Source: Pseudomonadales bacterium (GTDB lineage Bacteria > Pseudomonadota > Gammaproteobacteria > Pseudomonadales > UBA5518). From it: 60,480 nucleotides of DNA. A program made the translations under genes and the position numbers. Below, piece after piece: positions 11,107 through 60,480 of the stretch (positions within the stretch are counted from its first letter, which is position 1; every line of letters starts with the position of its first letter). The stretch lies in contig DAORUQ010000001.1 of NCBI GenBank assembly GCA_035433265.1, positions 8,954-69,433 on the forward strand. Reading direction: 5' to 3'. The notes below the pieces were generated by a model. The model was not told the DNA's origin. It made no database searches and was given only the letters and a program-made list of their open reading frames with translations.

Positions 11107-11161
11107 GAATGCGTGCCCGAAACGGGGCCCGCGACCGCACTCGGGGGCGCGCCTGGCGTGT

Positions 11162-11977
11162 TCAGTCGCCGTAGGAGAGCTCGTCGGTCTTGCCGCCGGC
11201 CATCACCGAACGCGTCAGGTCGTCGGCGCTCAGCATGCCGGCGTTCCAGTTCGCGATGTAGCGCAGCCCGTCGGCGACACTGTGGTCGCGGCCGTAGAGC
11301 AGCACCTCCTTGGTGCCGCGGATCGCCAGCGGCGAGCGCCGGGCGATGGTGCGCGCGATGTCCATCACCGCGGCCAGCATGCCCTCGCGCGTGGCATGGA
11401 CCTGGTTGACCAGCCCGTGGCGCTGCGCCTCCGCCGCGTCCATGCGCCGCCCGGTATAGGCCAGCTCGCGCATCAGGCCGTCGCCGATCAGCCGCGGCAG
11501 GCGCTGCAGCGTGCCGACGTCGGCGACCATGCCGAGCTCGATCTCCTTGATCGCGAAATACGCGTCCGCGGTGCAGTAGCGCATGTCGCAGCAGCTGATC
11601 ATGTCGACGCCGCCGCCGATGCAGGTGTACTGCACCGCCGCGAGCACCGGCTTGCGGCACTGCTCGATCGCCGTCAGGTTCGCCTGCAGGCGCTCGATGT
11701 GGTGGCGCCGGTGCTCGGCGCGCCGCCCCGGCTCCAGCGACTGGTCATCGAGCGTGGCGAACATCTGCAGGTCGATGCCGGCGCAGAAATGCCGGCCGCG
11801 CGCAGCCAGCACAACGGCGCGCACCGCCGGCTCGCGATCGCACCAGCGGAAGCACTCCTCTAGCTCGCGCCACAGCGCGGCGTTCATCGCGTTGGCCTTG
11901 TCCGGGCGGTTCAGCTCGACCAGCGCCACGTGATCGGCGAGCTCGAGCGCCAGCGTGTCGAAACGGGGAAGATCCAT
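11162..11977 (-). CDS. enoyl-CoA hydratase/isomerase family protein (dienoyl-CoA isomerase-like crotonase)
   Basis: VALVELNRPDKANAMN ... RHFCAGIDL ... AVQYTCIGGGVDM crotonase fold motifs. 271 aa. Confidence 0.85.
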   Translation of the reverse strand: MDLPRFDTLALELADHVALVELNRPDKANAMNAALWRELEECFRWCDREPAVRAVVLAARGRHFCAGIDLQMFATLDDQSLEPGRRAEHRRHHIERLQANLTAIEQCRKPVLAAVQYTCIGGGVDMISCCDMRYCTADAYFAIKEIELGMVADVGTLQRLPRLIGDGLMRELAYTGRRMDAAEAQRHGLVNQVHATREGMLAAVMDIARTIARRSPLAIRGTKEVLLYGRDHSVADGLRYIANWNAGMLSADDLTRSVMAGGKTDELSYGD

Positions 11978-12011
11978 GCGCGAACTCCTGTTGCGTCGTC
12001 GTCGATAGCGC

Positions 12012-12572
12012 TCAGCGCGGCCAACGGTGGAAATGCGCCGCCGGGTCGAGCGCCGGCAGCGGCTTGGGCGTGCCTTCCGGCGTGCCCAGGTAAAGGAAGC
12101 CGATCACGCGATCGCTCGCCGCCAGCCCCAGCTCCTCGCGCAGTTCGTCGGTGTACGTGACGGGGCCGGTGCGCCAGATGCCGCCGAAGCCGAGCGCGTG
12201 CGCCGCGACCAGCATGTTCTGCGCCGCGCAGGCGACCGCGAGCTCCTGCTCGATCGCGGGCACCTTGGGGTTGTCGCGCACGCGCGCCACCAGCACCAGC
12301 ACCAGCGGCGCGCGCAACGGGTTCGCGCGCAGCTTGTCCTGCGCCTCGGCGCCACTGTCGGGCGCGTGGCGTTGCATCGCGCGCGCCATCGCCGCACCGA
12401 GCGCCTCGCGCCCCTGCCCCTCGACGACCAGGAAATGCCAAGGCTGCAGCCGGGCGTGGTCCGGCGCGCGCAGCGCGGCGCGGAAGATCTGCTCGCGCGC
12501 GGCGCCCGCGGGTGCGGGCTCGGCCAGGCGCGCGGCGGAATTGCGGCTCAGCAGTGCGGCGATAGCGTCCAT
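12012..12572 (-). CDS. nitroreductase family protein (YdjA-like size)
   Basis: Trimmed to MDAIAALLSRNSAARL. Contains RAPDHARLQPWHFLVV and a C-terminal GFLYLG. 186 aa. Confidence 0.8.
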   Translation of the reverse strand: MDAIAALLSRNSAARLAEPAPAGAAREQIFRAALRAPDHARLQPWHFLVVEGQGREALGAAMARAMQRHAPDSGAEAQDKLRANPLRAPLVLVLVARVRDNPKVPAIEQELAVACAAQNMLVAAHALGFGGIWRTGPVTYTDELREELGLAASDRVIGFLYLGTPEGTPKPLPALDPAAHFHRWPR

Positions 12573-12647
12573 GTCACGACCTGTGCGGCGATGTCGCGCG
12601 CCACACTGCAATCATCGGCGCGCGATTGCAAGCGCGCCGGCGATGGT

Positions 12648-14507: not shown

Positions 14508-14664
14508 GGAGCGTTTTCCTTACTGCGGATGGCTGCGGCAGCCGGGGTGGGTGGCGCGCAACGGATCGATTCCAGTCTATGGCGAAGGCCGCGGGGCGGC
14601 TTGTAAATTCTGGTCATCGCCTTTAACTTTCCGGCCAGCCAATCCGGGAATTTTCCATCCGCCC

Positions 14665-15663
14665 ATGATCAGGGTCATCGTGCTCGCCATCGAGGGCGCA
14701 CTGGCCTCCAGCCTGGTGCTGCCGGTAGAGATGCTGCGCGCCGCGGCGCAGCACGCGCGCGCGCATTCGCGCCGGGCGCCGGGCCTCGAGGTCCGCGTTG
14801 CCGCCGAGCAGCGCGAGGTGCTCACCATGTCGGGGGTGATCGGCCTGCAGGCGGATCTCGCCGCCGATGCCGTGCAGGAGGCCGAACTGATCATCGTGCC
14901 CTCGCTGTGGCGCGCGCCGGCGGCGACCGTCGAGCGCCACCCGCGCATCGGGCGCGCCCTGCGCCGCGCCGCGCGCAGCGGCTCGCGGCTGTGCAGCGTG
15001 GGCACGGGCAGCTATTTTCCCGCGGCCGCGGGACTGCTGGACGGCCGCCAGGCCACCACGCACTGGTCATTCTTCGAGGATTTCGCGCGGCGCTTCCCCG
15101 CCGTGCAACTGCAGCGGCGCCACCTGATCACGCGCTCCGGGCCGTTCTATTGCGCGGCCAGCGTCAACTCGGCCGCCGACCTGACGCTGCACTTCATCGG
15201 GGAATTCTTCGGCGCGGCGGCCGCGCGCCAGGTCGAGAGCCAGTTTTCGCCGGAAATCCGCCGGCCCTTCGGCGCGCAGGGCCTCGGGGAAGGCGATGCC
15301 GGCGCGCACCCCGACGAAGCGATCCGCATGGCGCAGGACTGGCTGCTCGCCAATCCCGGCGCCAGGCTGCGCGTACCCGAGCTCGCGGCGCGCTGCGGTC
15401 TGGGCACCCGTACCTTCAACCGGCGCTTTCGTGCCGCCGTGGGCACCACGCCGCTCGCCTTCGTGCGCACGGCCCGCCTCGAGCTCGCGCGCGACCTGCT
15501 GCGCCAGAGCAATCTCGGCATCGGCGAGATCGCCCACCGCTGCGGTTATGCCGATCCGGGCCACTTCAGCCGCGCCTTCTCCGGCGCCACCGGCAGCAGC
15601 CCCCAGGAGTACCGCGCCCGCGCCCGCGGCAAGCTCTTTCGCGGCCAGCCGGGCTCGCCATGA
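14665..15663 (+). CDS. GlxA-type transcriptional regulator (DJ-1/PfpI domain + AraC HTH)
   Basis: The track ORF is trimmed to the ATG at 14665 (MIRVIVLAIEG...). DJ-1-like N-terminal half with CSVGTGSY. C-terminal AraC HTH: IGEIAHRCGYADPGHFSRAF. Confidence 0.85.
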   Translation: MIRVIVLAIEGALASSLVLPVEMLRAAAQHARAHSRRAPGLEVRVAAEQREVLTMSGVIGLQADLAADAVQEAELIIVPSLWRAPAATVERHPRIGRALRRAARSGSRLCSVGTGSYFPAAAGLLDGRQATTHWSFFEDFARRFPAVQLQRRHLITRSGPFYCAASVNSAADLTLHFIGEFFGAAAARQVESQFSPEIRRPFGAQGLGEGDAGAHPDEAIRMAQDWLLANPGARLRVPELAARCGLGTRTFNRRFRAAVGTTPLAFVRTARLELARDLLRQSNLGIGEIAHRCGYADPGHFSRAFSGATGSSPQEYRARARGKLFRGQPGSP

Positions 15664-15787
15664 CACGCATTTGGCCCGTCGAATGGCCATCATTCTTGTG
15701 TGCGCTCCGGCGATATGGCCAAATGCCGGCCCTGAATTTCCCCAACCCGATGCACTCGCGCGAACGCGCGCTGACAGGAGAAAGGCG

Positions 15788-16969
15788 ATGGACGACTCGA
15801 CGGTGGTGATCGCGGGCGCGGCGCGCACGGCAATGGGCGGCATGAACGGCGCGCTGGCCGGCATGGCGGCGACGCAGCTCGGCGCCGAGGCGATCCGCGC
15901 GGCGCTGGCGCGCAGCGGCATCGCGCCGGAAGCGGTAAACGAGGTCATCATGGGCTGCGTGCTGCCGGCCGGCCTGAAGCAGGCCCCGGCGCGCCAGGCG
16001 GCGCTCGGCGCCGGCATACCCAAGAGCGCGGGCTGCACCACGATCAACAAGGTCTGCGGCTCCGGCATGCAGGCGGTGATGTACGCGCACGACCAGCTGA
16101 AGGCAGGCACCAACGCCATCATGGTCGCCGGCGGCATGGAGAGCATGAGCAACGCGCCGCACATGCTGCTCGGCGCGCGCCAGGGCATCCGTCTGGGCCA
16201 CGCCGAGCTCAAGGACCACATGTTCCTCGACGGGCTCGAGGACGCCTACACCGCGCGCGCGATGGGCTCCTTCGCGCAGGAGACCGCCAACGAGCGCGGC
16301 ATCACGCGCGAGCAGATGGACGCCTACGCGATCCAGTCGCTGACGCGCGCGCTGGCCGCGATCGAGCAGGGCCGCTTCAAGGACGAGATCGTGCCGGTCA
16401 CGGTCAAGGGCCGCAAGGGCGACACCGTGGTCGATACCGACGAGCAGCCGCTCTCGGCCAGGCCCGACAAGATCCCGCAACTCAAGGCCGCCTTCGCCAA
16501 GGACGGCACGATCACCGCGGCAAATTCGAGCTCGATCTCCGACGGCGGCTCCGCACTGGTGCTGACCACCGCGGCCGAGGCGGCGAAGCGCGGCCTGCAA
16601 CCGATGGCGCGCGTCGTGGCCCACAGCCGCCATTCGCACGAGCCCAACCTGTTCACCACCGCACCCGTGTTCGCGATCCAGAAGCTGCTCGCGAAGACCG
16701 GCTGGAGCGCAAGCGACGTGGACCTGTTCGAGATCAACGAGGCCTTCGCGATGGTGGCCATGATCGCGATCCACGACCTCGGCCTGGACCCGGCGAAAGT
16801 GAACGTGCACGGCGGCGCCTGCGCGCTGGGCCACCCGCTGGGCTCCAGCGGCAGCCGCATCATCGTCACCCTGCTGCACGCGCTGAAGCACTACGGCAAG
16901 AAGCGCGGCATCGCGAGCCTGTGCATCGGCGGCGGCGAGGCCACGGCGGTGGCGGTCGAGATGCTCTGA
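15788..16969 (+). CDS. acetyl-CoA C-acyltransferase (thiolase)
   Basis: MDDSTVVIAGAARTAMGG, active-site NKVCGSGMQAV, NVHGGACALGHPLGSSG, C-terminal CIGGGEATAVAVE. Confidence 0.9.
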   Translation: MDDSTVVIAGAARTAMGGMNGALAGMAATQLGAEAIRAALARSGIAPEAVNEVIMGCVLPAGLKQAPARQAALGAGIPKSAGCTTINKVCGSGMQAVMYAHDQLKAGTNAIMVAGGMESMSNAPHMLLGARQGIRLGHAELKDHMFLDGLEDAYTARAMGSFAQETANERGITREQMDAYAIQSLTRALAAIEQGRFKDEIVPVTVKGRKGDTVVDTDEQPLSARPDKIPQLKAAFAKDGTITAANSSSISDGGSALVLTTAAEAAKRGLQPMARVVAHSRHSHEPNLFTTAPVFAIQKLLAKTGWSASDVDLFEINEAFAMVAMIAIHDLGLDPAKVNVHGGACALGHPLGSSGSRIIVTLLHALKHYGKKRGIASLCIGGGEATAVAVEML

Positions 16970-33983: not shown

Positions 33984-34379
33984 TCAGGGAACCAGCGCCG
34001 CCTGCATGTTGTGCGCGATGTGTCCGGCCACCCGGCGCGCGCGCTCGGCGTGCGGCCCGCTGTAGCCCTCGTCGAGGGTGGTGCAGAACAGCGCCAGCCA
34101 GCGCTCGAAGTCGGCCGGCTCGAGCTTCTGCTTCGCGTGCAGCGCGCGGTGGATGTTCATGGTGTGGCGCCGGTAGCTGTCGCTGCCCAGGATGAGTTTC
34201 TCCCAGTACGAGCAGATGATCGGCAGGTGCTTCGCGAGGTCTATCGCAGCGACGTCGAGGAAGATCGGGGCGAGCCGCTCGTCGGCGAGCACGCGCGCGT
34301 AGAAGGCCTCGATGAAGGCGCGGATGCGCGCGGGGGAGTCGAGGTCCGGCAGGGGGCTAGCGCTTGCTCTTCCTGACAT
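33984..34379 (-). CDS. group III truncated hemoglobin-like globin
   Basis: 131 aa. IRAFIEAFYARVLADERLAPIF ... HLPIICSYWEKLILG ... HTMNIHRALH pattern. The ATG at 34379 overlaps the der 3' end by 23 nt. Confidence 0.7.
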   Translation of the reverse strand: MSGRASASPLPDLDSPARIRAFIEAFYARVLADERLAPIFLDVAAIDLAKHLPIICSYWEKLILGSDSYRRHTMNIHRALHAKQKLEPADFERWLALFCTTLDEGYSGPHAERARRVAGHIAHNMQAALVP

Positions 34380-35763
34380 GCTGCATCATCCGCTTGCGCT
34401 TGTATTCCTGGCGCGGCGTCAGCGTGTTGCGCTTGCCCGCATACGGGTTCGTTCCGGTCACGAACTCGATGCGCAGCGGCGTGCCCACCAGCTTCAGTTC
34501 GCGACGGTACACGTTCTCCAGGTAGCGGCGGTAGTGCTCGGGAACGTCCGCAGTCTGGTTCCCGTGGACCACGATCACCGGCGGGTTGCTGCCGCCCGGG
34601 TGCGCCATGCGCAGCTTGATGCGCCGCCCGTGCACCAGCGGCGGCGGGTGCGACGCCACGGCATCCTCGAGGATCGCCGTGAGGCGGTTGGTGGGCAGCT
34701 TGCGCCGCGCCGATGCGTAGGCACGATCGACCGCGGCATAAAGCTGGCCCACGTTCGAGCCGTGCAGCGCGGAGATGAAATGCACCTCGGCGAAATCGGC
34801 GAACATCAGCCGCCGATCGAGCTCGCTCTTCAGGGCGGCCTTCCTGTCGGTGCCGAGACCATCCCACTTGTTGCAGACGATGATCAACGAGCGCCCGCTC
34901 TCGATCACGTGCCCGATCAGGTGCACGTCCTGCTCGAACAGACCCTCGCTGGCATCGACCAGCACGAGCGCCACGTTGGCATCGGCGATCGCCTGCAGCG
35001 TCTTCACGATGGAGAACTTCTCCACCGTCTCGTGCACGCTGCGCTTGCGCCTCAGGCCCGCGGTGTCGATCAGCGTGTAGCGCTTCTCGCCGCGCTCGAA
35101 ATCGACGTAGACGCTGTCGCGCGTGGTGCCCGGCTGGTCGAAGACCACGACGCGCTCCTCGCCGAGGATGCGGTTCACCAGCGTGGACTTGCCCACGTTG
35201 GGGCGCCCGACCACCGCCACCCTGACGCGCTCCTCGCCCGCCTCGCCTTCCTGCGCCTGCGGCTCGCCGGCATCCGGGAAGGCGTCGATCAGTGCCTGCT
35301 GCAACTGCTGCACGCCACGCCCGTGCGAGGCGCTCACCATCAACATGGTGGCCGCGCCGAGCTCGTGGAACTCCGCCCCGGAGAGCAGCTCATCGGTGCC
35401 GTCGATCTTGTTGACCACCAGCACGAACGGCTTGCCGCTCTCGCGCAGCAGCGCAACGATGCGCTGGTCGGCCGGCGTCACGCCCGCGCGCGCATCGACC
35501 AGCACCAGCGCGAGGTCGCACTCGGCGACCGCGGCCAGCGACTGGCGCGCCATCTCGGCATCGATGCCGGCCTCCTCGCCGCTGAGCCCCCCGGTGTCGA
35601 TCAGGATGAAGCGGTGCTCACCGGCGCGGAACTCGCCGTACTGGCGATCGCGCGTGAGCCCCGGGATGTTGGCAACCAGCGCATCGCGGCTGCGCGTGAG
35701 ACGGTTGAACAGCGTCGACTTGCCGACGTTGGGCCGTCCTACCAGCGCGATGACGGGCAGCAT
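34357..35763 (-). CDS. der: ribosome biogenesis GTPase Der (EngA)
   Basis: Two GTPase domains (GRPNVGKST twice, DTGG/DTAG, NKID/NKWD) plus a KH-like C-terminus. Confidence 0.95.
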   Translation of the reverse strand: MLPVIALVGRPNVGKSTLFNRLTRSRDALVANIPGLTRDRQYGEFRAGEHRFILIDTGGLSGEEAGIDAEMARQSLAAVAECDLALVLVDARAGVTPADQRIVALLRESGKPFVLVVNKIDGTDELLSGAEFHELGAATMLMVSASHGRGVQQLQQALIDAFPDAGEPQAQEGEAGEERVRVAVVGRPNVGKSTLVNRILGEERVVVFDQPGTTRDSVYVDFERGEKRYTLIDTAGLRRKRSVHETVEKFSIVKTLQAIADANVALVLVDASEGLFEQDVHLIGHVIESGRSLIIVCNKWDGLGTDRKAALKSELDRRLMFADFAEVHFISALHGSNVGQLYAAVDRAYASARRKLPTNRLTAILEDAVASHPPPLVHGRRIKLRMAHPGGSNPPVIVVHGNQTADVPEHYRRYLENVYRRELKLVGTPLRIEFVTGTNPYAGKRNTLTPRQEYKRKRMMQHVRKSKR

Positions 35764-43331: not shown

Positions 43332-44510
43332 TCAGGCCAGCATCCCCGGCTCCGGCACCGCGCTGCCCCGCAGCCGCGTCACGGCCCGGCGGATGGTATC
43401 GGCCGCCAGCGCGACATCTTCATCGGTGCTGAAGCGCCCGAGGCTGAAGCGCAATGACGCATGCGCCAGCTCGTCGCCCAGTCCTATGGCACGCAAAACG
43501 TGGGAAGGTTCCAGGCTGGCCGAGGTGCAGGCCGAACCCGAGGACACCGCGATGTCCTTCATCGCCATGATCATCGACTCGCCCTCCACGCCGGCGAACC
43601 GCACGTTCAGCGCCCCGGCCACGCGCCGTGCCGGGTCGCCGTTCTGTCCCACGCCCCCCAGGTCCGCGATGGACGCCCACAGCCGGTCGCGCAGCGCCGC
43701 GATGCGCCCGGCCTCGGCCTGCATTTCGGCGCGCGCCAGGCGCGCCGCCTCGCCCATGCCGACGATCTGGTGGGTGGGCAGCGTGCCGGAACGCATGCCG
43801 CGCTCATGGCCGCCGCCGTGCATCTGCGCCTCCAGCCAGACCCGCGGCAGGCGCCGCACGTACAGCGCCCCCACACCCTTGGGGCCGTACATCTTGTGCG
43901 CCGACAGCGAGGCCAGGTCGACCGGAAGCGCCGCGAGGTCGATCGGGAGCTTGCCCGCGCCCTGGGCGGCATCGACGTGGAACACGATGCCGCGCTCGCG
44001 GCACAGCGCGCCGAGGGCGGCGATGTCGTTGACGGTGCCGAGCTCGTTGTTCACGTGCATCACGCTCACGAGGATCGTGTCCTCGCGCAGCAGCGGCGCC
44101 AGCGCGGCGGGCTGCACGATGCCGCCGGCGTCCGGGGCCACGTAGCTCAGCTCGAAACCCTCCGTCTCCAGCTGGCGGCAGCTGTCGAGCACCGCCTTGT
44201 GCTCGATCGTCGAGGTGACGATGTGCCGCCCCTTGCGCCGGTTGAAGTGCGCTACACCCTTTAGCGCCAGGTTGTCGGCCTCGGTCGCCCCGCTGGTCCA
44301 GACGATCTCGCGCGGATCGGCGCCCACCAGCTCGGCCACCTCGCGCCGCGCCTGCTCCACGGCCTCCTCGGCGCGCCAGCCGTAGATGTGCGAGCGCGAG
44401 GAGGGATTGCCGAAATTGCCGTCGATGGTCAGGCATTGCGCCATGCACGCGGCCACGCGCGGATCCACCGGCGTGGTCGCGAGGTAGTCGAGGTAGACGG
44501 GCAGGCGCAT
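43332..44510 (-). CDS. iscS: cysteine desulfurase (IscS/NifS group I), short C-terminus
   Basis: Trimmed to [22 protein letters not shown]-Lys context [18 protein letters not shown]. Active-site loop [19 protein letters not shown]. 392 aa. Confidence 0.9.
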
Positions 44511-44533
44511 CGCGGGGAGTGGCCGGCAGGCTC

Positions 44534-45028
44534 TCAGTTCAGCGCGGTGACGCTGATATCGCCCGCCACGCGCTCGCGCGAGCCGTGGGTCCCGCGCTCG
44601 TGCTGGCGCCGCGAGACCCGCTGCACATCGCTGCGCGCGACCAGTTCGCCCAGCGTGATGCCGTTGAGGAAGGAATGGATCTGTTCGCTGAGGTCGTTCC
44701 ACAGCGTGTGGGTCAGGCAGATTTCACCCTGCTGGCAGCCGCCCTTGCCCTCGCAGGCCGTGGCTTCGTAGCTCTCGTTCACGGCATCGATGATCGAGGC
44801 GACGCTGATCTCGGCTCCCGGACGCTGCAGGCGATAGCCGCCACCGGGGCCGCGCACGCTGCTCACCAGCCCGCTGCGGCGCAGGCGCGCGAACAGCTGT
44901 TCCAGGTAGGAGAGCGAGATTTCCTGGCGCCCGGAGATATCGGACAGGCTCACCGGACCCCCGCCCTCGTGCAGCGCGAGATCGAGCATCGCGGTCACGG
45001 CATAACGTCCCTTGGTGGTCAGGCGCAT
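44534..45028 (-). CDS. iscR: Fe-S cluster assembly transcriptional regulator IscR (Rrf2 family)
   Basis: [29 protein letters not shown], and cluster-ligand cysteines in [19 protein letters not shown]. Confidence 0.9.
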
Positions 45029-49724: not shown

Positions 49725-52700
49725 TCAGCCCAGCCAGGCGCGCGCGTTGCGGAACAGGCGCATCCAGCCCCCGTCCTCGCCCCAGCCCGGCGCCCGCCAG
49801 GAGTTCTGCACGGTGCGGAACACCCGCTCCGGGTGCGGCATCATGATCGTCACCCGCCCGTCGCTGCTGGTCACCGCCGCCACGGCCCCCGCCGAACCGT
49901 TGGGGTTGGCCGGGAAGCGCTGCGTCGGGTTGCCGCGGCTGTCGACGTAGCGCAACGCCACGCGGCCGTCATGCTCGAGGCCCGCGAGCGCGCCGGGCAG
50001 AAATTCGGCCTGTCCCTCGCCGTGCGCGACCGACACCGGGATCATCGACCCCTCCATGCCGCGCAGCAGGATCGAGGGGCTCGATTCCACGCGCACCAGC
50101 GCCACCCTCGCCTCGTACTGCTCCGAGGCGTTGCGCACGAAGCGCGGCCAGTGCGCGCTGCCCGGGATGATGTCGCGCAGCCCGGACATCATCTGGCAGC
50201 CGTTGCAGACACCGAGCGTGAAGGTGTCGCCGCGCGCGAAGAAGCCCTGGAACTGCGTGCGCGCGCGCTCGTTGAACAACACCGTCCTGGCCCAACCGCC
50301 GCCGGCGCCCAGCACGTCGCCGTAGGAGAAGCCGCCGCAGGCCGCGATGCCGCTCACCGATGCCAGGTCGAGCGCGCCCGAGAGCACGTCGCTCATGTGT
50401 ACGTCGATGGCCTCGAAGCCGGCGCGGTCGAAGGCCGCGGCCATTTCGTACTGGCCGTTGACGCCCTGCTCGCGCAGCACCGCGACGCGCGGACGCGCGC
50501 CAGTGGCGATGAACGGCGCCTCGATGCGCTCGGCGGGGTCGTAGGCGAGCCGCGCGCCGAGGCCCGGATCGTCGGCATCGAGCAGCGCGTCGTATTCCTC
50601 GCGCGCGCAGTCGGGATTGTCGCGCAGCGCCTGCATGCGGAAGCTGAGCTCAGCCCAGGCGCGATGCAGCGCGGTGCGCGAGTTCTCGTAGACCACGCGC
50701 TCGCCGTTGCGGATGCGCACGGTGTCGCCGCGCGCGGGGCGCCCCAGCACGTGCGCGTACGCCCCGAGACCGGCCGCCGCGAAATACGCCCGCACCGCCG
50801 CGAGGTCGGCATCGCGCACCTGCATCACCGCGCCCAGTTCCTCGCTGAACAGCGCGGCGAGCGCGGCGGCGCCGAGCGCGGCGATGTCGACATCGAGCGC
50901 CGCCCGCCCGGCGAAAGCCATCTCGCACAGCGTCACGAACAGCCCGCCGTCGGAACGGTCGTGGTAGGCGAGCAGCAGGCCCTCGGCGATGCAGCGTTGC
51001 AGCGCCGCGAAGAAACCGCCGATCAGCGCGGGATCATCGAGATCCGGCGCGCTGTCGCCGACCTGCTTGTAGACCTGCGCCAGCGCCGAGGCACCGAGGC
51101 GGTTGCGCCCGCGCCCGAGATCCACCAGCAGCAGCTGCGATGCGCTCTCGTCGCGACGGATTTCCGGCGTCACCGCCAGGCGCACGTCGGTCACCGGCGC
51201 GAAGGCCGAGACGATCAGCGACAGCGGCGCGGTCACGGCCCTCGCCGCACCCGCCTCGCTCCAGCGCGTCGTCATGGACATCGAATCCTTGCCCACCGGG
51301 ATCACGATGCCGAGCGCCGGACACAGCTCCATGCCCACCGCGCGCACCGCCTCGAACAACGCCTGGTCCTCGCCCGGGTGGCCGGCGGCGGCCATCCAGT
51401 TCGCGGAGAGTTTCACGTCGGCAAGGCGCGCGATCGGTGCCGAGGCGATGTTGGTCAGCGCCTCGCCCACCGCCATGCGCGCCGAGGCGGCGGCATCGAT
51501 CAGCGCGAGCGGCGTGCGCTCGCCCATCGCCATCGCCTCGCCCGCGCAGGTGTCGAAGCTCGTGGTCGTGATGCCGGCATCGGCCACCGGCACCTGCCAG
51601 GGACCGACCATCTGGTCGCGGCTCACCTGCCCCGTGACGCTGCGATCGCCGATGGTCACCAGGAAGCCCTTGCCCGCCACGGCCGGCAGGCGCAGCACGC
51701 GCTCGACGGCGTCCGCGATATCCACATGATCCAGCGCGAGCGGCACGCGCGCGGGCACGGTGCGCGCGAACTCGCGGTGCATGCGCGGCGGCTTGCCGAA
51801 CAGCACCGACAGCGGCAAGTCCACCGGCCGCGAGCCGTCACGGGCGTCGGTCAGCGCGAGGTGCGCCGCCGCGCTCGCCTCGCCGACCACCGCATAGGGG
51901 CAGCGCTCGCGCTCGCAGATCGCGGCGAAGCGATCGAGATCGGCGGCGTCCACCGCCAGCACGTAGCGCTCCTGCGCCTCGTTGCACCACAGCTCGAGCG
52001 GCGAGAGCCCGGTATCGGCGCTGGGAATCTTCTCGAGCGCGATGCGCCCGCCGCAGCCGCCGTCCTTCACCAGCTCGGGCAGCGCGTTGGAAAGCCCTCC
52101 GGCGCCCACGTCGTGGATGAAGCGGATCGGGTTGCGCTCACCAAGCTGCCAGCAGCGGTCGATCACTTCCTGGCAGCGGTGCTCGATCTCGGCGTTGTCG
52201 CGCTGCACCGAGGCGAAGTCGAGCTCCTCGTGGCTCGCGCCCGAAGCCATCGAGGACGCCGCGCCACCGCCCAGCCCGATCAGCATCGCGGGCCCGCCGA
52301 GCACCACCAGGCGCGTGCCCTCGCCCATGGCGCCCTTGAGCACGTGCCCCTCGCGGATGTTGCCCAGGCCGCCGGCGACCATGATCGGCTTGTGATAGCC
52401 GCGCACCTCGCCCTCGTGCACCTCCTCGAAACTGCGGAAGTAGCCGCAGATCGCGGGACGGCCGAATTCGTTGTTGAACGCCGCGCCACCGATCGGGCCC
52501 TCGAGCATGATCTCGAGCGCCGAGGCGATGCGCCCGGGCTTGCCGTGATCGGTCTCCCAGGGTTGCGCGAATTGCGGCACGCGCAGGTTCGACACGCTGA
52601 AGCCCACGAGGCCGGCCTTGGGGCGCGCGCCGATACCCACCGCGCCCTCGTCGCGGATCTCGCCGCCCGATCCGGTGGCCGCACCCGGGTACGGCGCGAT

Positions 52701-53606
52701 CGCGGTCGGGTGGTTGTGCGTCTCGACCTTCATCAGGATGTGCACAGGCTCGGGGTGATACGCGAACACGCGCGTTTCGGGATCGGGAAAGAAGCGTCCC
52801 GCTTCGTGCCCGCGGATCACGGCGGCGTTGTCGGAGTACGCGCTCAGCACCGCCGGATCCGCGGCCTGCTCGTGCGTGTTGCGGATCATGCCGAACAGGC
52901 TGTGCGACTGCGGCTCGCCGTCGATGCTCCAGCTCGCATTGAAGATCTTGTGGCGGCAGTGCTCGCTGTTGGCCTGCGCGAACATCATCAGCTCCACATC
53001 GGCGGGATTGCGTCCGAGCTCGACGAAGGCCGCGCACAGATAATCGATCTCGTCATCGGCGAGCGCGAAACCGAACTCACGATTCGCGCGCTCCAGCGCC
53101 GCGCGGCCACCGCCGAGAATATCCACCGTGCGCAGCGCGCGCGGCGCCTCGTGCACGAACAGCTTCGCCGCGTCCTCGAGGCTCGCGAACACCGCCTCGA
53201 CCATGCGATCGTGCAGCGGCGCGGCGATGCGCGCGCGTAACTCTGCAGCAATCGTGCCTTCGCAATTCACGTAATACGCGATGCCGCGCTCGATGCGCCG
53301 CACGCGCGCCAGGCCGCAGTTGCGCGCGATGTCGGTGGCCTTGCTCGACCACGGCGACAACGTGCCCGGGCGCGGTACCACGAGAAACAATTCGCCCGCG
53401 AATTGTTGCGCCTCGCGATGCGGGCCGTAATCGAGCAATTGCCGCAGCATCGCGCTCTCGTCGTCGCGCGCTTCTCCGTCGATCTCGATGAAATGCATGA
53501 ATCGCGCCTGCACATCGCGCACATCGGCGGCGATCGATTGCAGTTCGCCGAGCAGCCGGCGAAGACGGAATGGCGAAAGCGCCGAAGCGCCGGCGAGAGT
53601 CAGCAT
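49725..53606 (-). CDS. purL: phosphoribosylformylglycinamidine synthase (large single-chain PurL)
   Basis: 1293 aa. Begins [19 protein letters not shown]. Contains FGM-AIR synthase-like domains and a C-terminal glutaminase with the GVCNGCQM nucleophile. Confidence 0.97.
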
Positions 53607-53657
53607 GACTGTTCCCGAAAATTGAAATTGAATGAAATGTTGTGCCTCGAGCGCAGA

Positions 53658-53663
53658 ATTCTA
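53658..53663 (-). promoter_or_regulatory. TAGAAT hexamer, candidate purL -10 box
   Basis: The minus strand reads acggTAGAATtctg, about 50 nt upstream of the purL ATG in the AT-rich spacer. Confidence 0.3.
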
Positions 53664-53782
53664 CCGTATGCCCCGAAGCGCCAGTTAGCTGCAATTGCGT
53701 ACGATTTTGACATCAACATTCGCGCGATGGCGTACAACACACCGATAGCGATTACTAACATTCGTGCGCACGCGGAAAAACG

Positions 53783-53809
53783 TACCGCGAAATAGCGGTA
53801 ATTTTTTTT
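53783..53809 (+). terminator. orphan intrinsic-terminator-like element (hairpin + T8)
   Basis: TACCGC-GAAATA-GCGGTA followed by ATTTTTTTT. No plus-strand gene ends upstream of it. On the minus strand the same hairpin is followed by CGTTTTT. Confidence 0.4.
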
Positions 53810-53842
53810 GTCCGATTGGGTTCCCATCGCGCGATTGGCGAC

Positions 53843-53848
53843 TAGAAT
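53843..53848 (+). promoter_or_regulatory. TAGAAT hexamer, candidate mltF -10 box
   Basis: ggcgacTAGAATcgac, 34 nt upstream of the ATG at 53882 and downstream of the T8 element. Confidence 0.3.
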
Positions 53849-53881
53849 CGACCCCCGCCAGGTACAGCAAGAGTGTGACCT

Positions 53882-55375
53882 ATGTGGATCACAGCAACTA
53901 CTGGAACACTGGAAAGCAGGCCACGGCCCATCACGAACGTCCTGAAAGGCGCATTGATGGGCATTCTGTGTGCAGTTCTCGCCGCGTGTCCCAGCGAGAC
54001 CATTCAGTCACACTCCGGCCCGCTTCCACGAGATTCCCTCGACGAAGTCCTGGCGCGCGGCAAGCTGCGCGTCGTCAGCCGGGTCAACCCGGCGACCTTC
54101 GTCGTAGACAAGCACGGCCCTTCCGGGATCGAGTTCGAGCTCGCGCGCGCGTTCGCCGAGAAAATCGGCGTCGAGCTCGAGATGATCCCGGCGGCCAACA
54201 TCGCCGAGGTCTATGCCGCGCTCGACAGCGGCACGGCGGACATGGCCGCCTCGGGCCTGTCGGCGCGCCTTTCCGGCACCTCGAGCTACTGGTACAGCTC
54301 GCCCTACCTCGAGGTGCGCCAGCAGATCGTCTACAGGAGCGGCGCGGCCCGCCCGCGCTCCGTCGCCGACCTGGTGGGCAAGCGCGTGATGGTGCTCGCG
54401 CAGAGCAGCTCCGCCGACGCGCTTGCCGAGGCGCAGCGCGCGCATCCCGGCCTCGGCTGGATGGAAGCCACGCGCATCGAGACCTTCGAGCTGCTGCGCA
54501 AGATCATGGACGACGAGATCGATTACGCGATCGTGAAGTCCAATGAATTCGAGATGCACGAGGGCCTGTTCCCCGGCATCGAGATCGCCTTCGAGCTCGA
54601 GGAGCGCGAGCAGCTCGCGTGGGCCACCGCCGAGCGCGGCCGCAATGCGCGACTGCACTCCTCGATGCAGAATTTCCTCGCGCGCTACGAGGAATCGGGC
54701 GAGCTGGACCTGCTGCGCGAGCGCTTCTTCGGTTACCTGCCCGAGATCAACCGCAAGGCGCTGACCGCGTTTGCCGAGCGCGTCGAATCGCACCTGCCGC
54801 GATTCGAGGGGGTGCTGCGCAGGATCGGCGCCGAGGAAGGCATCGACTGGCGCCTGCTGGCCGCGATCAGCTACCAGGAATCGCACTGGAATCCGCGCGC
54901 GGTGTCGTACACCGGCGTGCGCGGCATGATGATGCTGACGAAGGTGACGGCGCGCGAGGTCGGCGTGACCGATCGCACCAACCTCGAGCAAAGCCTGCGC
55001 GGCGGCGCGCGCTATTTCCTGAAACTGGTGGAGCAGGTGAGCGAGGACATCGCGCCCTCGGAACGCGAGCTCTTCGCGCTCGCCGCCTACAACATCGGCC
55101 CCGCGCACGTCGAGGACGCGCGCCGCATCGCCGAGATGCGCGGCGCCGATCCGGACGTGTGGGCCGACGTGGAGAAGCAGCTGCCGCTGCTGACAAAGCG
55201 CGCATGGCATTCGCGCACCCGCCACGGCTACGCGCGCGGCTACGAAACCCTGAGCTTCGTCAACCGCATCCGCCAGTACCACCGCTTCCTCGAGCACCAC
55301 GACGAGGAATCGAACATGCTGCAGGTCGCGCAGAACGCGCGCACCTCGTTCGCGCAGCTGCCCACCCGCTCCTGA
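53882..55375 (+). CDS. mltF: membrane-bound lytic murein transglycosylase F
   Basis: Lipobox AVLAAC, an N-terminal solute-binding-like domain (KLRVVSRVNPATF), and a C-terminal SLT domain (ISYQESHWNP ... GMMMLT ... AYNIGPAHV). The start is uncertain (alternative ATG at 53957). Confidence 0.85.
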   Translation: MWITATTGTLESRPRPITNVLKGALMGILCAVLAACPSETIQSHSGPLPRDSLDEVLARGKLRVVSRVNPATFVVDKHGPSGIEFELARAFAEKIGVELEMIPAANIAEVYAALDSGTADMAASGLSARLSGTSSYWYSSPYLEVRQQIVYRSGAARPRSVADLVGKRVMVLAQSSSADALAEAQRAHPGLGWMEATRIETFELLRKIMDDEIDYAIVKSNEFEMHEGLFPGIEIAFELEEREQLAWATAERGRNARLHSSMQNFLARYEESGELDLLRERFFGYLPEINRKALTAFAERVESHLPRFEGVLRRIGAEEGIDWRLLAAISYQESHWNPRAVSYTGVRGMMMLTKVTAREVGVTDRTNLEQSLRGGARYFLKLVEQVSEDIAPSERELFALAAYNIGPAHVEDARRIAEMRGADPDVWADVEKQLPLLTKRAWHSRTRHGYARGYETLSFVNRIRQYHRFLEHHDEESNMLQVAQNARTSFAQLPTRS

Positions 55376-55391
55376 CCACACAAAAATGTGG

Positions 55392-55409
55392 GTCGCCATT
55401 CATGGCGAC
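55392..55409. repeat. REP unit overlapping the tadA stop codon
   Basis: GTCGCCATTCATGGCGAC preceded by the TGTGG flank. The tadA codons TCG CCA TGA (minus strand) lie inside it. Confidence 0.8.
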
Positions 55410-55867
55410 ATCCGGCGGCGGCGGAAGAAATCCCGCATCATCCGCGCCGCATCGTCCGCGCACACGCCCTCGCTCCACGCCACGCGATGGTTCAGAAAAG
55501 CCGCGTCCAGCAGCGCGAGGTTGCTCGCCACCGCGCCGGCGCGCGGCTCGCGCGCGGCGAACACCACGCGCGCCACGCGCGCATGCACCAGCGCGCCCGC
55601 GCACATCGCGCAGGGCTCGATGCTGACGTACAGCGTGGAACCGCTCAGCCGGTAGTTGCTCAACGCATTCGCCGCGGCGCGCAGCGCCACGATCTCGGCG
55701 TGCGCGGTGGGATCGCAGCGCCCGATCGGCGCGTTCCAGCCCTCGCCGAGCACCTCGCCGTCGCGCACCAGCACCGCGCCTACGGGCACTTCGCCCGCGC
55801 CCTCGCCCGCGCGCGCTAGCTCGAGCGCGCGGCGCATCCAGTGCTCGTCTTCTTCTGCGCTCGTCAT
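55400..55867 (-). CDS. tadA: tRNA adenosine(34) deaminase
   Basis: The track ORF is trimmed to MTSAEEDEHWMRRALELA. Zinc motifs: HAEIVALR and EPCAMCAGAL. Confidence 0.9.
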   Translation of the reverse strand: MTSAEEDEHWMRRALELARAGEGAGEVPVGAVLVRDGEVLGEGWNAPIGRCDPTAHAEIVALRAAANALSNYRLSGSTLYVSIEPCAMCAGALVHARVARVVFAAREPRAGAVASNLALLDAAFLNHRVAWSEGVCADDAARMMRDFFRRRRMSP

Positions 55868-55959
55868 GTGCGTTCTCCCGTCGTGGCGCCAGCGCGCGCG
55901 CCCGCGATGATAGCCCAGCTCGACGCGGCAACCGCGCCGCGCAGCCCCTGCAACCGTCC

Positions 55960-56709
55960 TCAGGCCGGCAGCGGCAATTCGCCCTCGCTCAGGAAGGTCT
56001 CGAGGACGAAGCGGACGACGGCGCTCGCGCCCACCTGCTTGAACGCGACTTCGCGTGCGCCGGCCTCGCACAGCCAGCGCGTGGTCTCCCGCGGCGCCGG
56101 CTCGCTGAAAGCGGCGGGCGAAATCAGCCCGACGCACAAGCCGTGTCCCGGGTCGCGCGCCGACGGGTACTCGAAGGCCTCCACGCCCGCCTCGCGCATC
56201 GCGGTCCCCAGCAGCTGCGTCTGCACGTAATCCTTCGGGTGCGCGATCGTCGCGGCGAAACGCGCGAACGGTGCCTCGTGCAGCTTCACCCCGCGCGCCG
56301 TCCGGTAGAGCGCCGAGAACAGCGTGTGCTGCGAACGGATGGCCGCCTTCGGCGGCGCCGCGTCCATCGAGTACCAGAACACGAAGCGGTAATAGGCGGC
56401 CTCGGCCAGCGTGGCATCCGTGCCGCAAGCGCCGTAGAAAATGCCCGGCTCGTGCACGCGCCCGAAGCGCGAGCCCCACGACAGCGGCGGATAGCGAAAC
56501 GGCGTCTTCAGCAGGTAGTGCAGGCCTTCGGTCCCGGCACGGTACGGGGGCTTTACCTCGTCCAGCATCGCTTCCAGCAGCGCCTGCTCCTCGAGGGTGT
56601 CGACGTAGCCGAGCGTCGCGACCTGCTCCTGGCTCTCGACGAGGCGATACAGCGTGCCCGCCACGCGGCGAATCTGCGCGGCGCCGTGGCACGCCTCCCA
56701 GATCGTCAC
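55960..56709 (-). CDS. RES domain toxin (NAD+-targeting RES family)
   Basis: GTG start at 56709 overlaps the antitoxin stop (GTGA). Contains LYRLVESQEQ, FRYPPLSWGSRFG (R), AFEYPSARDPGHG (E..S). 249 aa. Confidence 0.85.
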   Translation of the reverse strand: MTIWEACHGAAQIRRVAGTLYRLVESQEQVATLGYVDTLEEQALLEAMLDEVKPPYRAGTEGLHYLLKTPFRYPPLSWGSRFGRVHEPGIFYGACGTDATLAEAAYYRFVFWYSMDAAPPKAAIRSQHTLFSALYRTARGVKLHEAPFARFAATIAHPKDYVQTQLLGTAMREAGVEAFEYPSARDPGHGLCVGLISPAAFSEPAPRETTRWLCEAGAREVAFKQVGASAVVRFVLETFLSEGELPLPA

Positions 56710-57077
56710 ACCTTGCCCCGCAGGGCATCGACGAACTGCAGCACGGTGACCAGGCCCTGGATGCTCTCGATCTGCCGCGCCGGGACGCCCCCCGTCGCCT
56801 TGTTCGCGCTGCGCATGAAGTGCCGGATCCAGTCCTGGTCGCCGCCGGTGAGCGCGTACAGCGCCCGCGCCACGCGCACGAGGAGCAACGCCAGCTCGCC
56901 CGCCTTGGACCGCGGATCCAGCGCGGGTTGCTGTTTGAGCCGGCTGATCGCCGTGCGGTGCATGCCGAGCACGGCGGCCAGCTCCGCCTGTTTCAGCCCG
57001 AGCTGCGCCGCGGCGCTCAGCACGGCCTTGGCCAGCACGACCTCGGGCGCGGCTTGGGGGTGCGGCTGGGTGGACAT
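56706..57077 (-). CDS. Xre-like antitoxin with DUF2384 (MbcA/ParS-type) toxin-binding domain
   Basis: HTH: LGLKQAELAAVLGMHRTAISRL. C-terminal: DQDWIRHFMRSANKATGGVPARQIESIQGLVTVLQFVDAL. RBS GGGAG upstream. Confidence 0.85.
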   Translation of the reverse strand: MSTQPHPQAAPEVVLAKAVLSAAAQLGLKQAELAAVLGMHRTAISRLKQQPALDPRSKAGELALLLVRVARALYALTGGDQDWIRHFMRSANKATGGVPARQIESIQGLVTVLQFVDALRGKV

Positions 57078-57097
57078 GCGCGGCTCCCGGGGAAAAT

Positions 57098-57135
57098 GCT
57101 ATCTGCACATATGCTATGCACGATGTGCGGATAGC
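57098..57135. promoter_or_regulatory. imperfect 13-bp inverted repeat, candidate antitoxin operator overlapping -10-like TAGCAT boxes
   Basis: GCTATCTGCACAT (57098..57110) and ATGTGCGGATAGC (57123..57135) have one mismatch. ATGCTAT occurs twice as a direct repeat. The element lies 21-58 nt upstream of the antitoxin ATG. Confidence 0.45.
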
Positions 57136-57155
57136 ACAACCCGTAATTGCCCCGC

Positions 57156-57851
57156 TCAGCCGCCGATCGCCGCGACTTCCGCCGGCGCCAGGTGCCGCCA
57201 TTCGCCTGGCGCGAGCGCCGCATCGAGCACGATCCCGCCGACCGCGAGCCGGTGCAGCGCGAGGACCTCGTTGCGGAAGACGCCGAACATCCGCCTGACC
57301 TGGTGGTAGCGGCCCTCGTGGATCGTGAGCTCCGCGCGGGTGGCGGACAGGGTCACCAGCCGCGCGGGCTGCGTCACCAGGTTCTCGTAGCGCAGATAGA
57401 TACCTGCCGCGAAGCGCTCGGCGTATTCCGGCGTGATCGGGTCGCGTGTATGCACGAGGTAGGTCTTGGGAATCTTGCGCTCGGGCAGCGTGATGCGGCG
57501 CGTCCAGTTGCCGTCGCTGCTGAGCAGCAACAGCCCCGTGGTATTGAAGTCGAGCCTCCCGGCGAGGTGCAGTTCCTCACGCGCCGGCAGGTCGATCAGA
57601 TCGAGCACCGTACAGTGCTTGCGGTCGGTGGTGGCGCTGACGCAGCCGCGCGGCTTGTGCAGCATCAGGTACACGGGCTCGCGCGCGCGCAACAGCCGTC
57701 CCGCCACCTCGACGCGGCAAAAGGTCGAGACCGCCTGGCTGCCGTCGGTGGCCGGCACGCCGTTCAGCAGCACCTCGCGCGCGGCGATCATGTGCTGCGC
57801 GCTGCGCGCCGAGCACGCCAGCCGGGAGCCTATGAAGCGGTCGAGTCGCAT
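57156..57851 (-). CDS. rsuA: 16S rRNA pseudouridine synthase, RsuA family
   Basis: Trimmed to MRLDRFIGSRL (S4 domain). Catalytic HLAGRLDFNTTGLLLL. KTYLV. EGRYHQVRRMF. Confidence 0.8.
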   Translation of the reverse strand: MRLDRFIGSRLACSARSAQHMIAAREVLLNGVPATDGSQAVSTFCRVEVAGRLLRAREPVYLMLHKPRGCVSATTDRKHCTVLDLIDLPAREELHLAGRLDFNTTGLLLLSSDGNWTRRITLPERKIPKTYLVHTRDPITPEYAERFAAGIYLRYENLVTQPARLVTLSATRAELTIHEGRYHQVRRMFGVFRNEVLALHRLAVGGIVLDAALAPGEWRHLAPAEVAAIGG

Positions 57852-58041
57852 CGGGGTTGATCTACCTCGCGTAGTTCGCGGCTGTTGCCGAAGCATCCAC
57901 GGCGCCTTGGTGTGGATGCGCCCAAGAATTCATCGACTATCGTAGCGCGGCTGCGCCGTTCCATGGAGAACCATGGATGAGCTCGACAACCGCCCCCGTT
58001 GTTGCCAACATCGACCGACGAGAGCATCCAGAATCCAGTCA

Positions 58042-59559
58042 ATGCCGTCTGCAAACACATCGGCCGAGTTATTCCGGCACGTCAGCGCCGAGAAAGCCGG
58101 CATCTACCGCAGCATCATGGCGAGTTTCGCCGCGGCAAAGCGCCAGTTCCGGCTGCACATGCGACCCGACGAAGTGCTGACCGAGGCTCGGTGGACCGAT
58201 GGCGCACCAAAGCTCGAGGAAGTTCAGGCCGCGCTCGCTCAACTCGCCGAATGGGGCAACCTCGAGGCGCAGCCCGACACAGCACGCGTCGCCAGCATCA
58301 GCGACTTTTACCGCGCCCGCTTCCTCTACCGGCTCTCCCATGGCGGCGATGCGGTCGAGACAGCCCTCGCGGCCTTCGCCGACGCACTCGAACGGCGCGC
58401 CGAACTGCAGACGATCGCGCTGGAGGACATCGCCAGCCGGCTCAGGACCCTGCTCGCGCTGGCCGACGCGCCGGCGATCGATGCGGCGAAGCTGCACGAG
58501 ACGCTGCGCGATCTGGTGCGTGTGTTCGAGGGCCTGGCCGACAACGCCCAGGCATTCATGGCCGGCATGGCCCGCAGCATCGAGCTGCAACAGGCCGATG
58601 CCACCGCGGTGGTGGCTTACAAGCAACGGCTGATCGACTACCTCGAACGTTTCATCGGCGATCTGGTCGGGCGCTCCGGCGCGATCGCAGAGCACATTGC
58701 CGCGCTGCATCCGCGCATCGATCCACTGCTGTGGTCGGCCGCGCAACGCGAGGCGCGCGACGCCGCTCCCGCTGACCAACAAGCGCAGACCGAGGCGCTC
58801 GCACAGCGCCAGCAGGCGTGGCGTGAACGCTGGGGGGGCCTGCGCAGCTGGTTCGTCAGCGCCCATCATGAACCGCCTCAGGCCGAGGTGTTGCGCTCGA
58901 AGGCGCGCGCGGCGATTCCGCAGCTGCTGGCGGCGGTCGCGGCGCTGAACGAGCGGCGCAGCGGGCGCAGCGACCGCTCGGCCGACTTCAGGGTGCTCGC
59001 CGGCTGGTTCGCGAGCTGCGCGGGCGATGACGACTCGCACCGCCTCGGTCGCGCCGCCTTCGCCCTCAACCCGGCGCGGCATTTCTCGTTGAATCCGGAC
59101 GCCGGCAACGAACTGCCGGCCACGACGCCGTGGGCCGAGGCGCCGCCGCTGCGTATCCACCCGCGCCTGCGCGAGTACGGCGAGGCCGCTCCACGAGGTC
59201 CGCTGCCCAGGGTGCATGAACGCTCGGAGGAACGCGCCCTGCTCGCGCGCCAATTGCGTGAAGAACATCTGCAGGTCGAAGCCGCGCGTGCACGCCTGGC
59301 CACGGGCCGGATGACGCGCCTGTCCGACATTGGGCGCCTCGATCCGCACGCCTTCGCGCTGTTGCTGTCGCTGCTGGGCGAGGCGTTGAGCGCGCAATCC
59401 TCTCCCGAGGACGTGATCGAGCGCCAGACCGGCGATGGCCTGCTGCGGATTCGTCTCGAGCCGATGGCAGCACACACGCGGGCCGAAATCCTCACCGATG
59501 CCGGCGTCTTTGCCGGCCGTGACCACCGCATCACGATCACCGCCACGCATACGCCCTGA
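58042..59559 (+). CDS. jetA: Wadjet JetA-like protein (TIGR02677 / DUF2397 family)
   Basis: The N-terminus ELFRHVSAEKAGIYRSIMASFAAAKRQFRLHMRPDEV fits the family start. About 505 aa and largely helical. An alternative ATG is at 57973. Assigned by motif recall, not by search. Confidence 0.75.
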   Translation: MPSANTSAELFRHVSAEKAGIYRSIMASFAAAKRQFRLHMRPDEVLTEARWTDGAPKLEEVQAALAQLAEWGNLEAQPDTARVASISDFYRARFLYRLSHGGDAVETALAAFADALERRAELQTIALEDIASRLRTLLALADAPAIDAAKLHETLRDLVRVFEGLADNAQAFMAGMARSIELQQADATAVVAYKQRLIDYLERFIGDLVGRSGAIAEHIAALHPRIDPLLWSAAQREARDAAPADQQAQTEALAQRQQAWRERWGGLRSWFVSAHHEPPQAEVLRSKARAAIPQLLAAVAALNERRSGRSDRSADFRVLAGWFASCAGDDDSHRLGRAAFALNPARHFSLNPDAGNELPATTPWAEAPPLRIHPRLREYGEAAPRGPLPRVHERSEERALLARQLREEHLQVEAARARLATGRMTRLSDIGRLDPHAFALLLSLLGEALSAQSSPEDVIERQTGDGLLRIRLEPMAAHTRAEILTDAGVFAGRDHRITITATHTP

Positions 59560-60480
59560 TGAGAAGCGACAGCACCGCGATCGGCCAGCAGCAGGCCCGC
59601 CATCAACGCGAGGAGATCGCCGACGCGCTGCGCGCCCTGCTGATGACGCCGTTGATGACGCCTGCACATGCCGAGTTCGCCGCGGTGCGCCGCCATGCCG
59701 ATGCGCTGCGCGAATGGTTCGTCCGCGAGACCGGCTGGGCGCTGCACATCGAACGCGACGCGGCACGCCTGTACAAGCGCCCGGCCGACCTGAACGACGC
59801 CACCCGCGGGATGCCCGGCTACGAGCGCCGCCGCTATGTGCTGCTGTGCCTCGCCTGCGCGGTGCTGGAGCGTGCCGACCCGCAGATCACACTGCACGTG
59901 CTCGGCGACCGGCTGCTCGCCCTTGCCGCGGAACCGGCGCTGGCCGCGCTCGGCTTCAGCTTCACACTCCAGGCGCAGCACGAGCGGCGCGAGCTGGTCG
60001 CGGTGTGCCGCACACTGCTGGAGCTCGGCGTGCTGCATCGCGTGGCCGGTGACGAAGAGGGCTTCGTGCGCGGCGGCAACGCAGGCCCGGACAGCCTCCA
60101 CGACGCGCTCTACGACGTACAGCGGCGGGTTCTAGCCGGTATGCTCGCGGCATCGCGCGGCCCTTCCACATGGCCCGCGGACGAAGCCCCGGCCACGCTC
60201 GAGGCGCGGCTCGCCGCTCTGGTTACTGAGCCCGTTCCAGACAGCGACGAAGGCCGACGTACGGCGCTGCGCCACCACCTGGCGCGCCGCCTGCTGGACG
60301 ACCCGGTGATCTACCTCGACCGCCTCGACGCCGACCAGCGCGCCTACTTCCTGAACCAGCGCGGCACCATGGCCATCCGGCTGTGTGACGCCACCGGGCT
60401 GGTCGCCGAACAGCGCGCCGAGGGGCTGGCGCTGGCCGACGAGGACGGCGAACTGACCGACGTGGCGATGCCGGCCGAGG
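59559..60480 (+). CDS. jetB: Wadjet JetB-like protein (TIGR02678 / DUF2398 family), 5' partial at window edge
   Basis: It is absent from the ORF track because the frame has no stop before the window ends. The ATG at 59559 overlaps the jetA stop (TGATG). MRSDSTAIGQQQARHQREEIADALRALLMTPLMTPAHAEFAAVRRHADALREWFVRETGWALHIERDAARLYKRP. The frame stays open for 307 codons. Confidence 0.75.
   Translation, partial: MRSDSTAIGQQQARHQREEIADALRALLMTPLMTPAHAEFAAVRRHADALREWFVRETGWALHIERDAARLYKRPADLNDATRGMPGYERRRYVLLCLACAVLERADPQITLHVLGDRLLALAAEPALAALGFSFTLQAQHERRELVAVCRTLLELGVLHRVAGDEEGFVRGGNAGPDSLHDALYDVQRRVLAGMLAASRGPSTWPADEAPATLEARLAALVTEPVPDSDEGRRTALRHHLARRLLDDPVIYLDRLDADQRAYFLNQRGTMAIRLCDATGLVAEQRAEGLALADEDGELTDVAMPAE

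Follow-up and report, generated by a model that had tools for sequence, protein, structure and literature searches.

A type II Wadjet operon at the end of the window

The 60,480-nucleotide (nt) stretch of DNA analysed here, referred to throughout as the window, ends inside a locus that we read, with a probability of about 93%, as a complete chromosomal type II Wadjet operon, jetABCD, of ~8.2 kb in a high-G+C proteobacterium, which would act by the mechanism of the characterized systems. The genes bear the identities and the order of such an operon, are tightly coupled, carry intact motifs and are under purifying selection. Wadjet systems are found in roughly 5% of bacteria. Loci and contigs related to the window and compared with it are given L-numbers. 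The window contains the following parts of the operon:

57983..58041, plus strand: leader of the jet cassette, conserved, non-coding, possible promoter
58042..59559, plus strand: jetA, predicted kleisin-like subunit of type II Wadjet, 505 aa from a conserved ATG; DUF2397/TIGR02677/JetA2
59559..60480, plus strand: jetB, predicted KITE subunit, 5' part, 307 of 412 codons, the gene being cut by the window end; DUF2398/TIGR02678/JetB2

The longest plus-strand open reading frame (ORF) over jetA in the ORF listing is 57973..59559 (528 aa). The jetA stop codon (TGA, 59557-59559) shares one base with the jetB start codon (ATG, 59559-59561), giving TGATG. The jetB frame runs from 59559 through 307 codons to base 60480 with no stop, and jetB is absent from the ORF list because this frame is still open at the window end. 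A preliminary description of this DNA had reported both the coupling of two plus-strand genes by TGATG at 59557-59561 and the want of a stop as the reason for the missing second gene, and the sequence confirms both. There is no frameshift or stop in jetA or in the visible part of jetB.

Two antisense ORFs, 58069..59766 (565 aa) and 58878..60101 (407 aa), overlie jetA and jetB. These are most likely chance ORFs, which are usual in DNA of 70% G+C; the two plus-strand frames alone have more than 80% G+C in the third codon position (0.81 and 0.87). In G+C content, the jet genes (0.69-0.73) match their flanks.

Family and subtype of JetA and JetB

JetA matched Pfam PF09660 (DUF2397) over the full profile (8e-145), TIGR02677 (6e-199, 662 bits; cut-off 166) and the PADLOC model JetA2 (2e-202). 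The JetB fragment matched PF09661 (DUF2398; 1e-82, profile positions 1-267 of 363), TIGR02678 (3e-101, 339 bits, cut-off 125; profile positions 1-278 of 376) and JetB2 (2e-114, 381 bits). The DUF2397/TIGR02677 and DUF2398/TIGR02678 identities, first proposed in the preliminary description, are thus supported by matches far above the curated cut-offs. Among the PADLOC type I models, the sole match in the two genes was a marginal one to JetB1 (E = 0.0045, 15 bits), and the type I model JetA1 matched neither JetA nor JetB of the window.

JetA also matched the type II JetA of Neobacillus vireti (PDB 9QE0 chain E) over residues 36-476 (5.9e-28, 101 bits). The partial JetB alone had no match in the PDB by phmmer. 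With a 20-sequence JetB family profile, the only meaningful PDB match was N. vireti JetB (9QE0 chain D, 7.6e-5), significant over the first lobe only (residues 31-181). Judged from these comparisons, the subtype is readable from jetA and jetB: the PADLOC matches to JetA2 and JetB2, together with the match to N. vireti JetA, show it to be type II. The earlier statement that two genes do not determine the subtype was therefore wrong.

A literature search by the names DUF2397 and DUF2398 found no papers, and the use of Pfam and TIGRFAM accession numbers as the query led to a Ralstonia survey.

Continuation of the operon beyond the window

The part of the operon downstream of the window was read by proxy. 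A look-up with the 505-aa JetA gave four contigs, each from a different sample, with 99.6-99.97% identity to the window. All of them run into an intact jetC, and into jetD where long enough. On L081 the continuation past base 60480 takes up positions 10068-15795, about 5.7 kb. Contig L081 (ENA ERZ27275376, 28.4 kb) aligns without gaps to window positions 50414-60480 at 99.87% identity, and contig L082 (JGI 3300005660) aligns without gaps to 56972-60480 at 99.97% identity, with one mismatch. L082 encodes the same JetA protein, and the first 307 residues of its 412-aa JetB are the same as the fragment in the window. On L081 and L082, jetB (412 aa), jetC (1400 aa, TTG start) and jetD (397 aa) follow one another on one strand, and the intergenic spacing on L082 is 11 nt for jetB-jetC and 3 nt for jetC-jetD. 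These lengths and this arrangement agree with the jetC of more than 1000 aa and the subsequent jetD of about 400 aa that had been predicted for the same strand.

The full JetB of L082 matched TIGR02678 (1e-123, 413 bits), JetC of the proxy contigs matched TIGR02680 (E = 0, 1730 bits) and PF13558, and JetD of L081 and L082 matched TIGR02679 (1e-137, 459 bits). PADLOC assigned the proteins of the proxy contigs to JetB2, JetC2 (E = 0) and JetD2 (4e-131), and the match of JetC to the type I model JetC1 was 5e-12, against E = 0 for JetC2. A Pfam scan of the JetD orthologues in L003 and L006 showed an N-terminal PF11796 domain (DUF3323) and PF09664 (DUF2399); the JetC orthologues of the same loci matched PF13558 only, with no match to PF13555 at E ≤ 1e-3. 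Of the Pfam models put forward in the preliminary description, PF09660, PF09661, PF13558 and PF09664 were thus recovered, PF11795 was replaced by PF11796, and PF13555 was unmatched.

The Walker A (GNNGTGKS, K66) and Walker B (LVLLDE, E1307) motifs of JetC are intact, as are the Toprim glutamate of JetD (E266, in CENPN) and its DFD motif (D315/D317). Among alignable relatives, GKS is conserved in 71 of 71 sequences, LDE in 61 of 61 and DFD in 59 of 60. The Toprim glutamate is present in all 58 sequences listed of the 59 aligned, with the full CENPN in 53. dN/dS against the orthologues in L003 and L006 is 0.12-0.25 for the four genes (jetA, 0.12-0.14), which indicates purifying selection on all of them.

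Relatives and conservation of the operon

Among 185,579 species-representative genomes scanned, 384 stretches encode relatives. The closest relatives in this comparison are Rhodocyclales, and the closest JetA proteins, 85-89% identical, come from Thauera, Azoarcus, Aromatoleum, Zoogloea and metagenome-assembled genomes of Rhodocyclaceae. Five named genomes, Azoarcus sp. Aa7, Thauera sp. WH-2, Thauera terpenica 58Eu, Aromatoleum anaerobium and Zoogloea ramigera (loci L001-L004 and L032), share gene lengths and a leader of ~60 nt with the window. Their JetA proteins are 87-89% identical to that of the window, and their JetB, JetC and JetD are 81-91% identical to the L003 counterparts. Unlike the shared cassette, the genes on either side have no relation to one another in any of these genomes, and the cassette was therefore acquired or moved independently.

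Conservation of operon order was counted in the 60 related loci that extend 8.3 kb or more past the start of jetA. Of these, 54 carry jetB-jetC-jetD in order, and the others, L063 apart, are interrupted or decayed. In L054, jetC is lost and jetB and jetD are truncated; in L079, jetA and jetB are present with no detectable jetC or jetD; in L050, ~4.9 kb lie between jetB and jetC. The jet locus of L016 is fragmented, the jetC coverage of L080 is partial, and L063 falls short only marginally, by its JetB coverage.

Start of jetA and its leader

The preliminary description had placed the gene start at 57973. The closest relatives do not keep this ATG (L001 and L003 have ATA instead), and indels of 1, 2 and 4 nt, in L004, L014 and L032 respectively, break the frame between 57973 and 58042. 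All 11 aligned sequences have the ATG at 58042. Public gene calls also start jetA at 58042, and 16 public contigs encode exactly this 505-aa protein. On these grounds jetA is placed at 58042-59559: it most likely starts at 58042, 57973 being merely the first possible ORF start. Exact look-ups in public proteins found no record of the 528-aa jetA ORF product or of the 245-aa product of the neighbouring pseudouridine synthase ORF, because the public calls use internal starts.

Nucleotide homology to the 13 closest loci begins abruptly at TCGACA (57983-57988) and reaches the ATG at 58042; 5' of 57983 the window and these loci are unrelated. The resulting leader of ~60 nt is conserved at the nucleotide level only in these 13 loci, and the frame-breaking indels noted above show it to be non-coding. 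An Rfam scan of the whole window gave no match, so the leader is not a known RNA element. Its layout is promoter-like, with TCGACA at 57983-57988, a 17-nt spacer and CAACAT at 58006-58011. A weak sigma-70 promoter is plausible here, proposed from conservation only.

A short palindrome, TGTTGcCAACA (58000-58010), overlaps the putative -10 element. Its GTTGCCA core is invariant in the 13 closest loci, and L005 and L006 carry a degraded form of the palindrome. The palindrome could be an operator or could be due to chance; if the former, the invariant core could serve in the control of Wadjet expression. A sigma-54 promoter on the palindrome was rejected on our own reading of the sequence, the GG-to-GC spacing being 3 nt too short and the strand wrong. 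At ~9975-10006 of L006, and at the same place in L005, two tandem copies of GCTTGCCCGACGGTAT lie directly 5' of the start of the TCGACA homology; this duplication could be a junction scar.

Proposed mechanism and alternative readings

The biochemical activity and target range of this JetABCD are those that we infer from the characterized systems. A motor unit would consist of the kleisin JetA, a single tandem-KITE JetB and two copies of the SMC-like ATPase JetC, and motor units would dimerize via the JetA N-terminus. The complex would load on DNA and extrude loops with ATP. On a small circle, extrusion would run to completion and the complex would stall; the stalled state would then recruit and activate the Toprim nuclease JetD, leading to a sequence-nonspecific DNA cut. 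Linear DNA and the very large chromosome would escape cleavage, and the net outcome would be the restriction of incoming plasmids.

Several points weigh against this reading. The only characterized type II system is a distant relative in sequence (JetA, 101 bits; JetB profile, E = 8e-5). About 10% of the related loci are degraded or interrupted, and a sigma-70 consensus scan of 57700-58200 returned no promoter at threshold. jetC, jetD and the last 105 codons of jetB lie outside the window and are known from near-identical contigs of other samples; downstream of 60480 the source genome may differ from these by a deletion or insertion specific to its strain.

The operon may be a genuine JetABCD of type II whose main targets are circles other than classical plasmids, such as phage replication intermediates, circles of integrative and conjugative elements, or phage-plasmids. 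The mechanism senses the shape and size of DNA and not its sequence, and any small circle should be a substrate; in addition, the operon lies among toxin-antitoxin (TA) modules and has TIR and SNF2 neighbours in relatives, as in defence islands. However, plasmid restriction is what the published studies of both types show, and the sequence holds nothing that would separate the two target ranges. We regard this shift of targets as unlikely.

It is very unlikely that the source organism carries only a decayed or truncated remnant (jetA and jetB alone, or a disrupted jetC or jetD) with no defence function. The window does stop before jetC, and L054, L079, L050 and L016 are examples of degraded or interrupted loci. 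Nevertheless, the visible reading frames are undamaged, the four independent proxy contigs all reach an intact jetC, and jetD where their length allows, and the dN/dS values given above argue against decay.

That the genes encode a nuclease-free condensin of the MksBEF/MukBEF type, serving chromosome organization or segregation and not defence, is hardly credible: JetABC is homologous to MukFEB, JetC weakly matches SMC_prok_B (1.5e-6) and the neighbourhood consists of housekeeping genes, but on the proxy contigs, and likewise in 54 of the 60 related loci, jetC is followed by the gene of a Toprim JetD whose E and DxD are intact, the four proteins match Wadjet type II models at E ≤ 1e-130 against an SMC_prok_B score of 26 bits (cut-off 567), and the operon moves among unrelated contexts like a defence cassette.

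Genomic context and mobility

The type II Wadjet operon is chromosomal, stands beside housekeeping genes and is flanked by TA pairs. The housekeeping genes upstream of it include iscS, rlmN, pilW, rodZ, ispG, hisS, der, a SpoU methylase gene, an inositol monophosphatase gene, secF, secD, purL, mltF and tadA. The features adjoining the operon, in the window and on related contigs, are as follows:

55960-56709, minus strand: RES-domain toxin, half of a complete RES-Xre type II TA pair
56706-57077, minus strand: antitoxin with Xre-like-HTH and Xre_MbcA_ParS_C domains, overlapping the RES gene by 4 nt
57156-57896, minus strand: pseudouridine synthase (S4 and PseudoU_synth_2), divergent from jetA; public start 57851, 231 aa
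L081 15975-16658 and L082 9417-10100, minus strand: VapC (PIN) toxin and FitA-like RHH antitoxin, ~180 nt after jetD
L003 5225-8017 and 18362-20821, L004 8477-9604, L007 6732-9875: neighbour genes of orthologous cassettes

The RES-Xre pair sits between tadA and the pseudouridine synthase gene, a homologue of which was not found beside the Wadjet operons of L005 and L006. On L081 and L082, jetD is followed by the VapC(PIN)/RHH pair and then by a P-type cation ATPase gene. The vapBC pair also follows jetD in L005 and L006 (92% identical), and L007 has an inverted copy near jetD (76-80% identical). vapBC may move together with the Wadjet cassette.

A PADLOC scan of 50 window proteins revealed no other defence system, in keeping with the preliminary description, which had called this locus the clearest defence-type system in the window. 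The strong PADLOC match to SspA/DndA (~1e-165) is attributable to the housekeeping IscS (43332-44699, minus strand), and the matches to LeoA/LeoBC probably to Der, a GTPase of ribosome biogenesis (34357-35760, minus strand); both were rejected as defence genes.

Block order was compared between the window (55400-60480), L006 (9300-19883) and L005. The core flanks of L005 and L006 are shared with the window at 88-93% nucleotide identity. The order is tadA / RES-Xre / rsu / jetABCD-vapBC / ATPase in the window, and tadA / jetABCD-vapBC / RES-Xre / HTH gene in L005 and L006, so that the blocks are swapped. This suggests a variable hotspot of TA and defence genes adjoining tadA. Nucleotide identity to L005 and L006 is 81-81.5% for jetABCD and RES-Xre, and 92% for vapBC. 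That the jet genes are more diverged than the flanks and vapBC hints at allele replacement or repeated acquisition, with the TA modules as anchors.

The orthologous cassettes of Azoarcus, Thauera, Aromatoleum and Zoogloea stand among entirely different genes. Given these differing neighbours and the shared leader, the operon behaves as a horizontally mobile cassette with its own leader. A further suggestion, that jetABCD, the promoter leader of ~60 nt and vapBC form one unit relocating within a TA-rich variable spot by tadA, is tentative and rather improbable. The neighbours of the orthologous cassettes include an SMC_N/AAA_21 ATPase (930 aa), SNF2 helicases (one with a SWIM finger) and a TIR_2 protein, and these are possible further defence genes.

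Comparison with known systems

The locus is an ordinary, already known type II Wadjet, present in public data with matching annotation, and the preliminary description was right to call it a known rather than a new system. PADLOC or DefenseFinder would flag it automatically, and it has little significance beyond annotation. The source organism, apparently a member of a wastewater or environmental community, likely resists transformation by small circular plasmids; for its genetic tractability, deletion of jetC or jetD would be worth considering.

The type II Wadjet of Neobacillus vireti LMG 21834 (nvJET-II) has been reconstituted and its structure solved (PDB 9QE0/9QE1; bioRxiv 10.1101/2025.03.10.642339). 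It extrudes loops and cleaves circles like type I, but needs Mn; its motor units are JetA1B1C2, with a single tandem-KITE JetB and a MukB-like hinge, and neither JetD nor JetABC can be exchanged between type I and type II (bioRxiv 10.1101/2025.03.10.642339). The operon described here resembles nvJET-II in its DUF2397 and DUF2398 proteins, its TIGR02680-type SMC, its DUF3323+DUF2399 Toprim protein and its gene order. JetB is enlarged in both (388 aa in nvJET-II, 412 aa here), and JetC is likewise enlarged (1400 aa here); judged by these lengths, the predicted JetB and JetC fit the type II pattern. The two systems differ in that their sequences are only remotely related and in their hosts, a Firmicute for nvJET-II and a proteobacterium here.

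Type I Wadjet extrudes DNA loops and cleaves small circular DNA independently of sequence, while linear DNA is spared. The type I systems of E. coli GF4-3 and P. aeruginosa PA14 (JetABCD) share with the present operon a kleisin-KITE-SMC motor and a Toprim nuclease. They belong to different families, the JetB1 model being DUF4194 and MukE-like, and type I models barely match here. Type I is further marked by a homodimer of a 242-aa KITE protein, a V-shaped resting state and activity for which Mg alone suffices.

MukBEF and MksBEF have a homologous SMC-kleisin-KITE architecture, and the hinge and dimer geometry of type II resemble those of MukBEF. They differ in having no nuclease subunit and a role in chromosome organization, whereas the jet locus has JetD. 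For comparison with the sole characterized type II system, which is from a Firmicute, the clade described here supplies Gram-negative orthologues that are 85-89% identical to one another.

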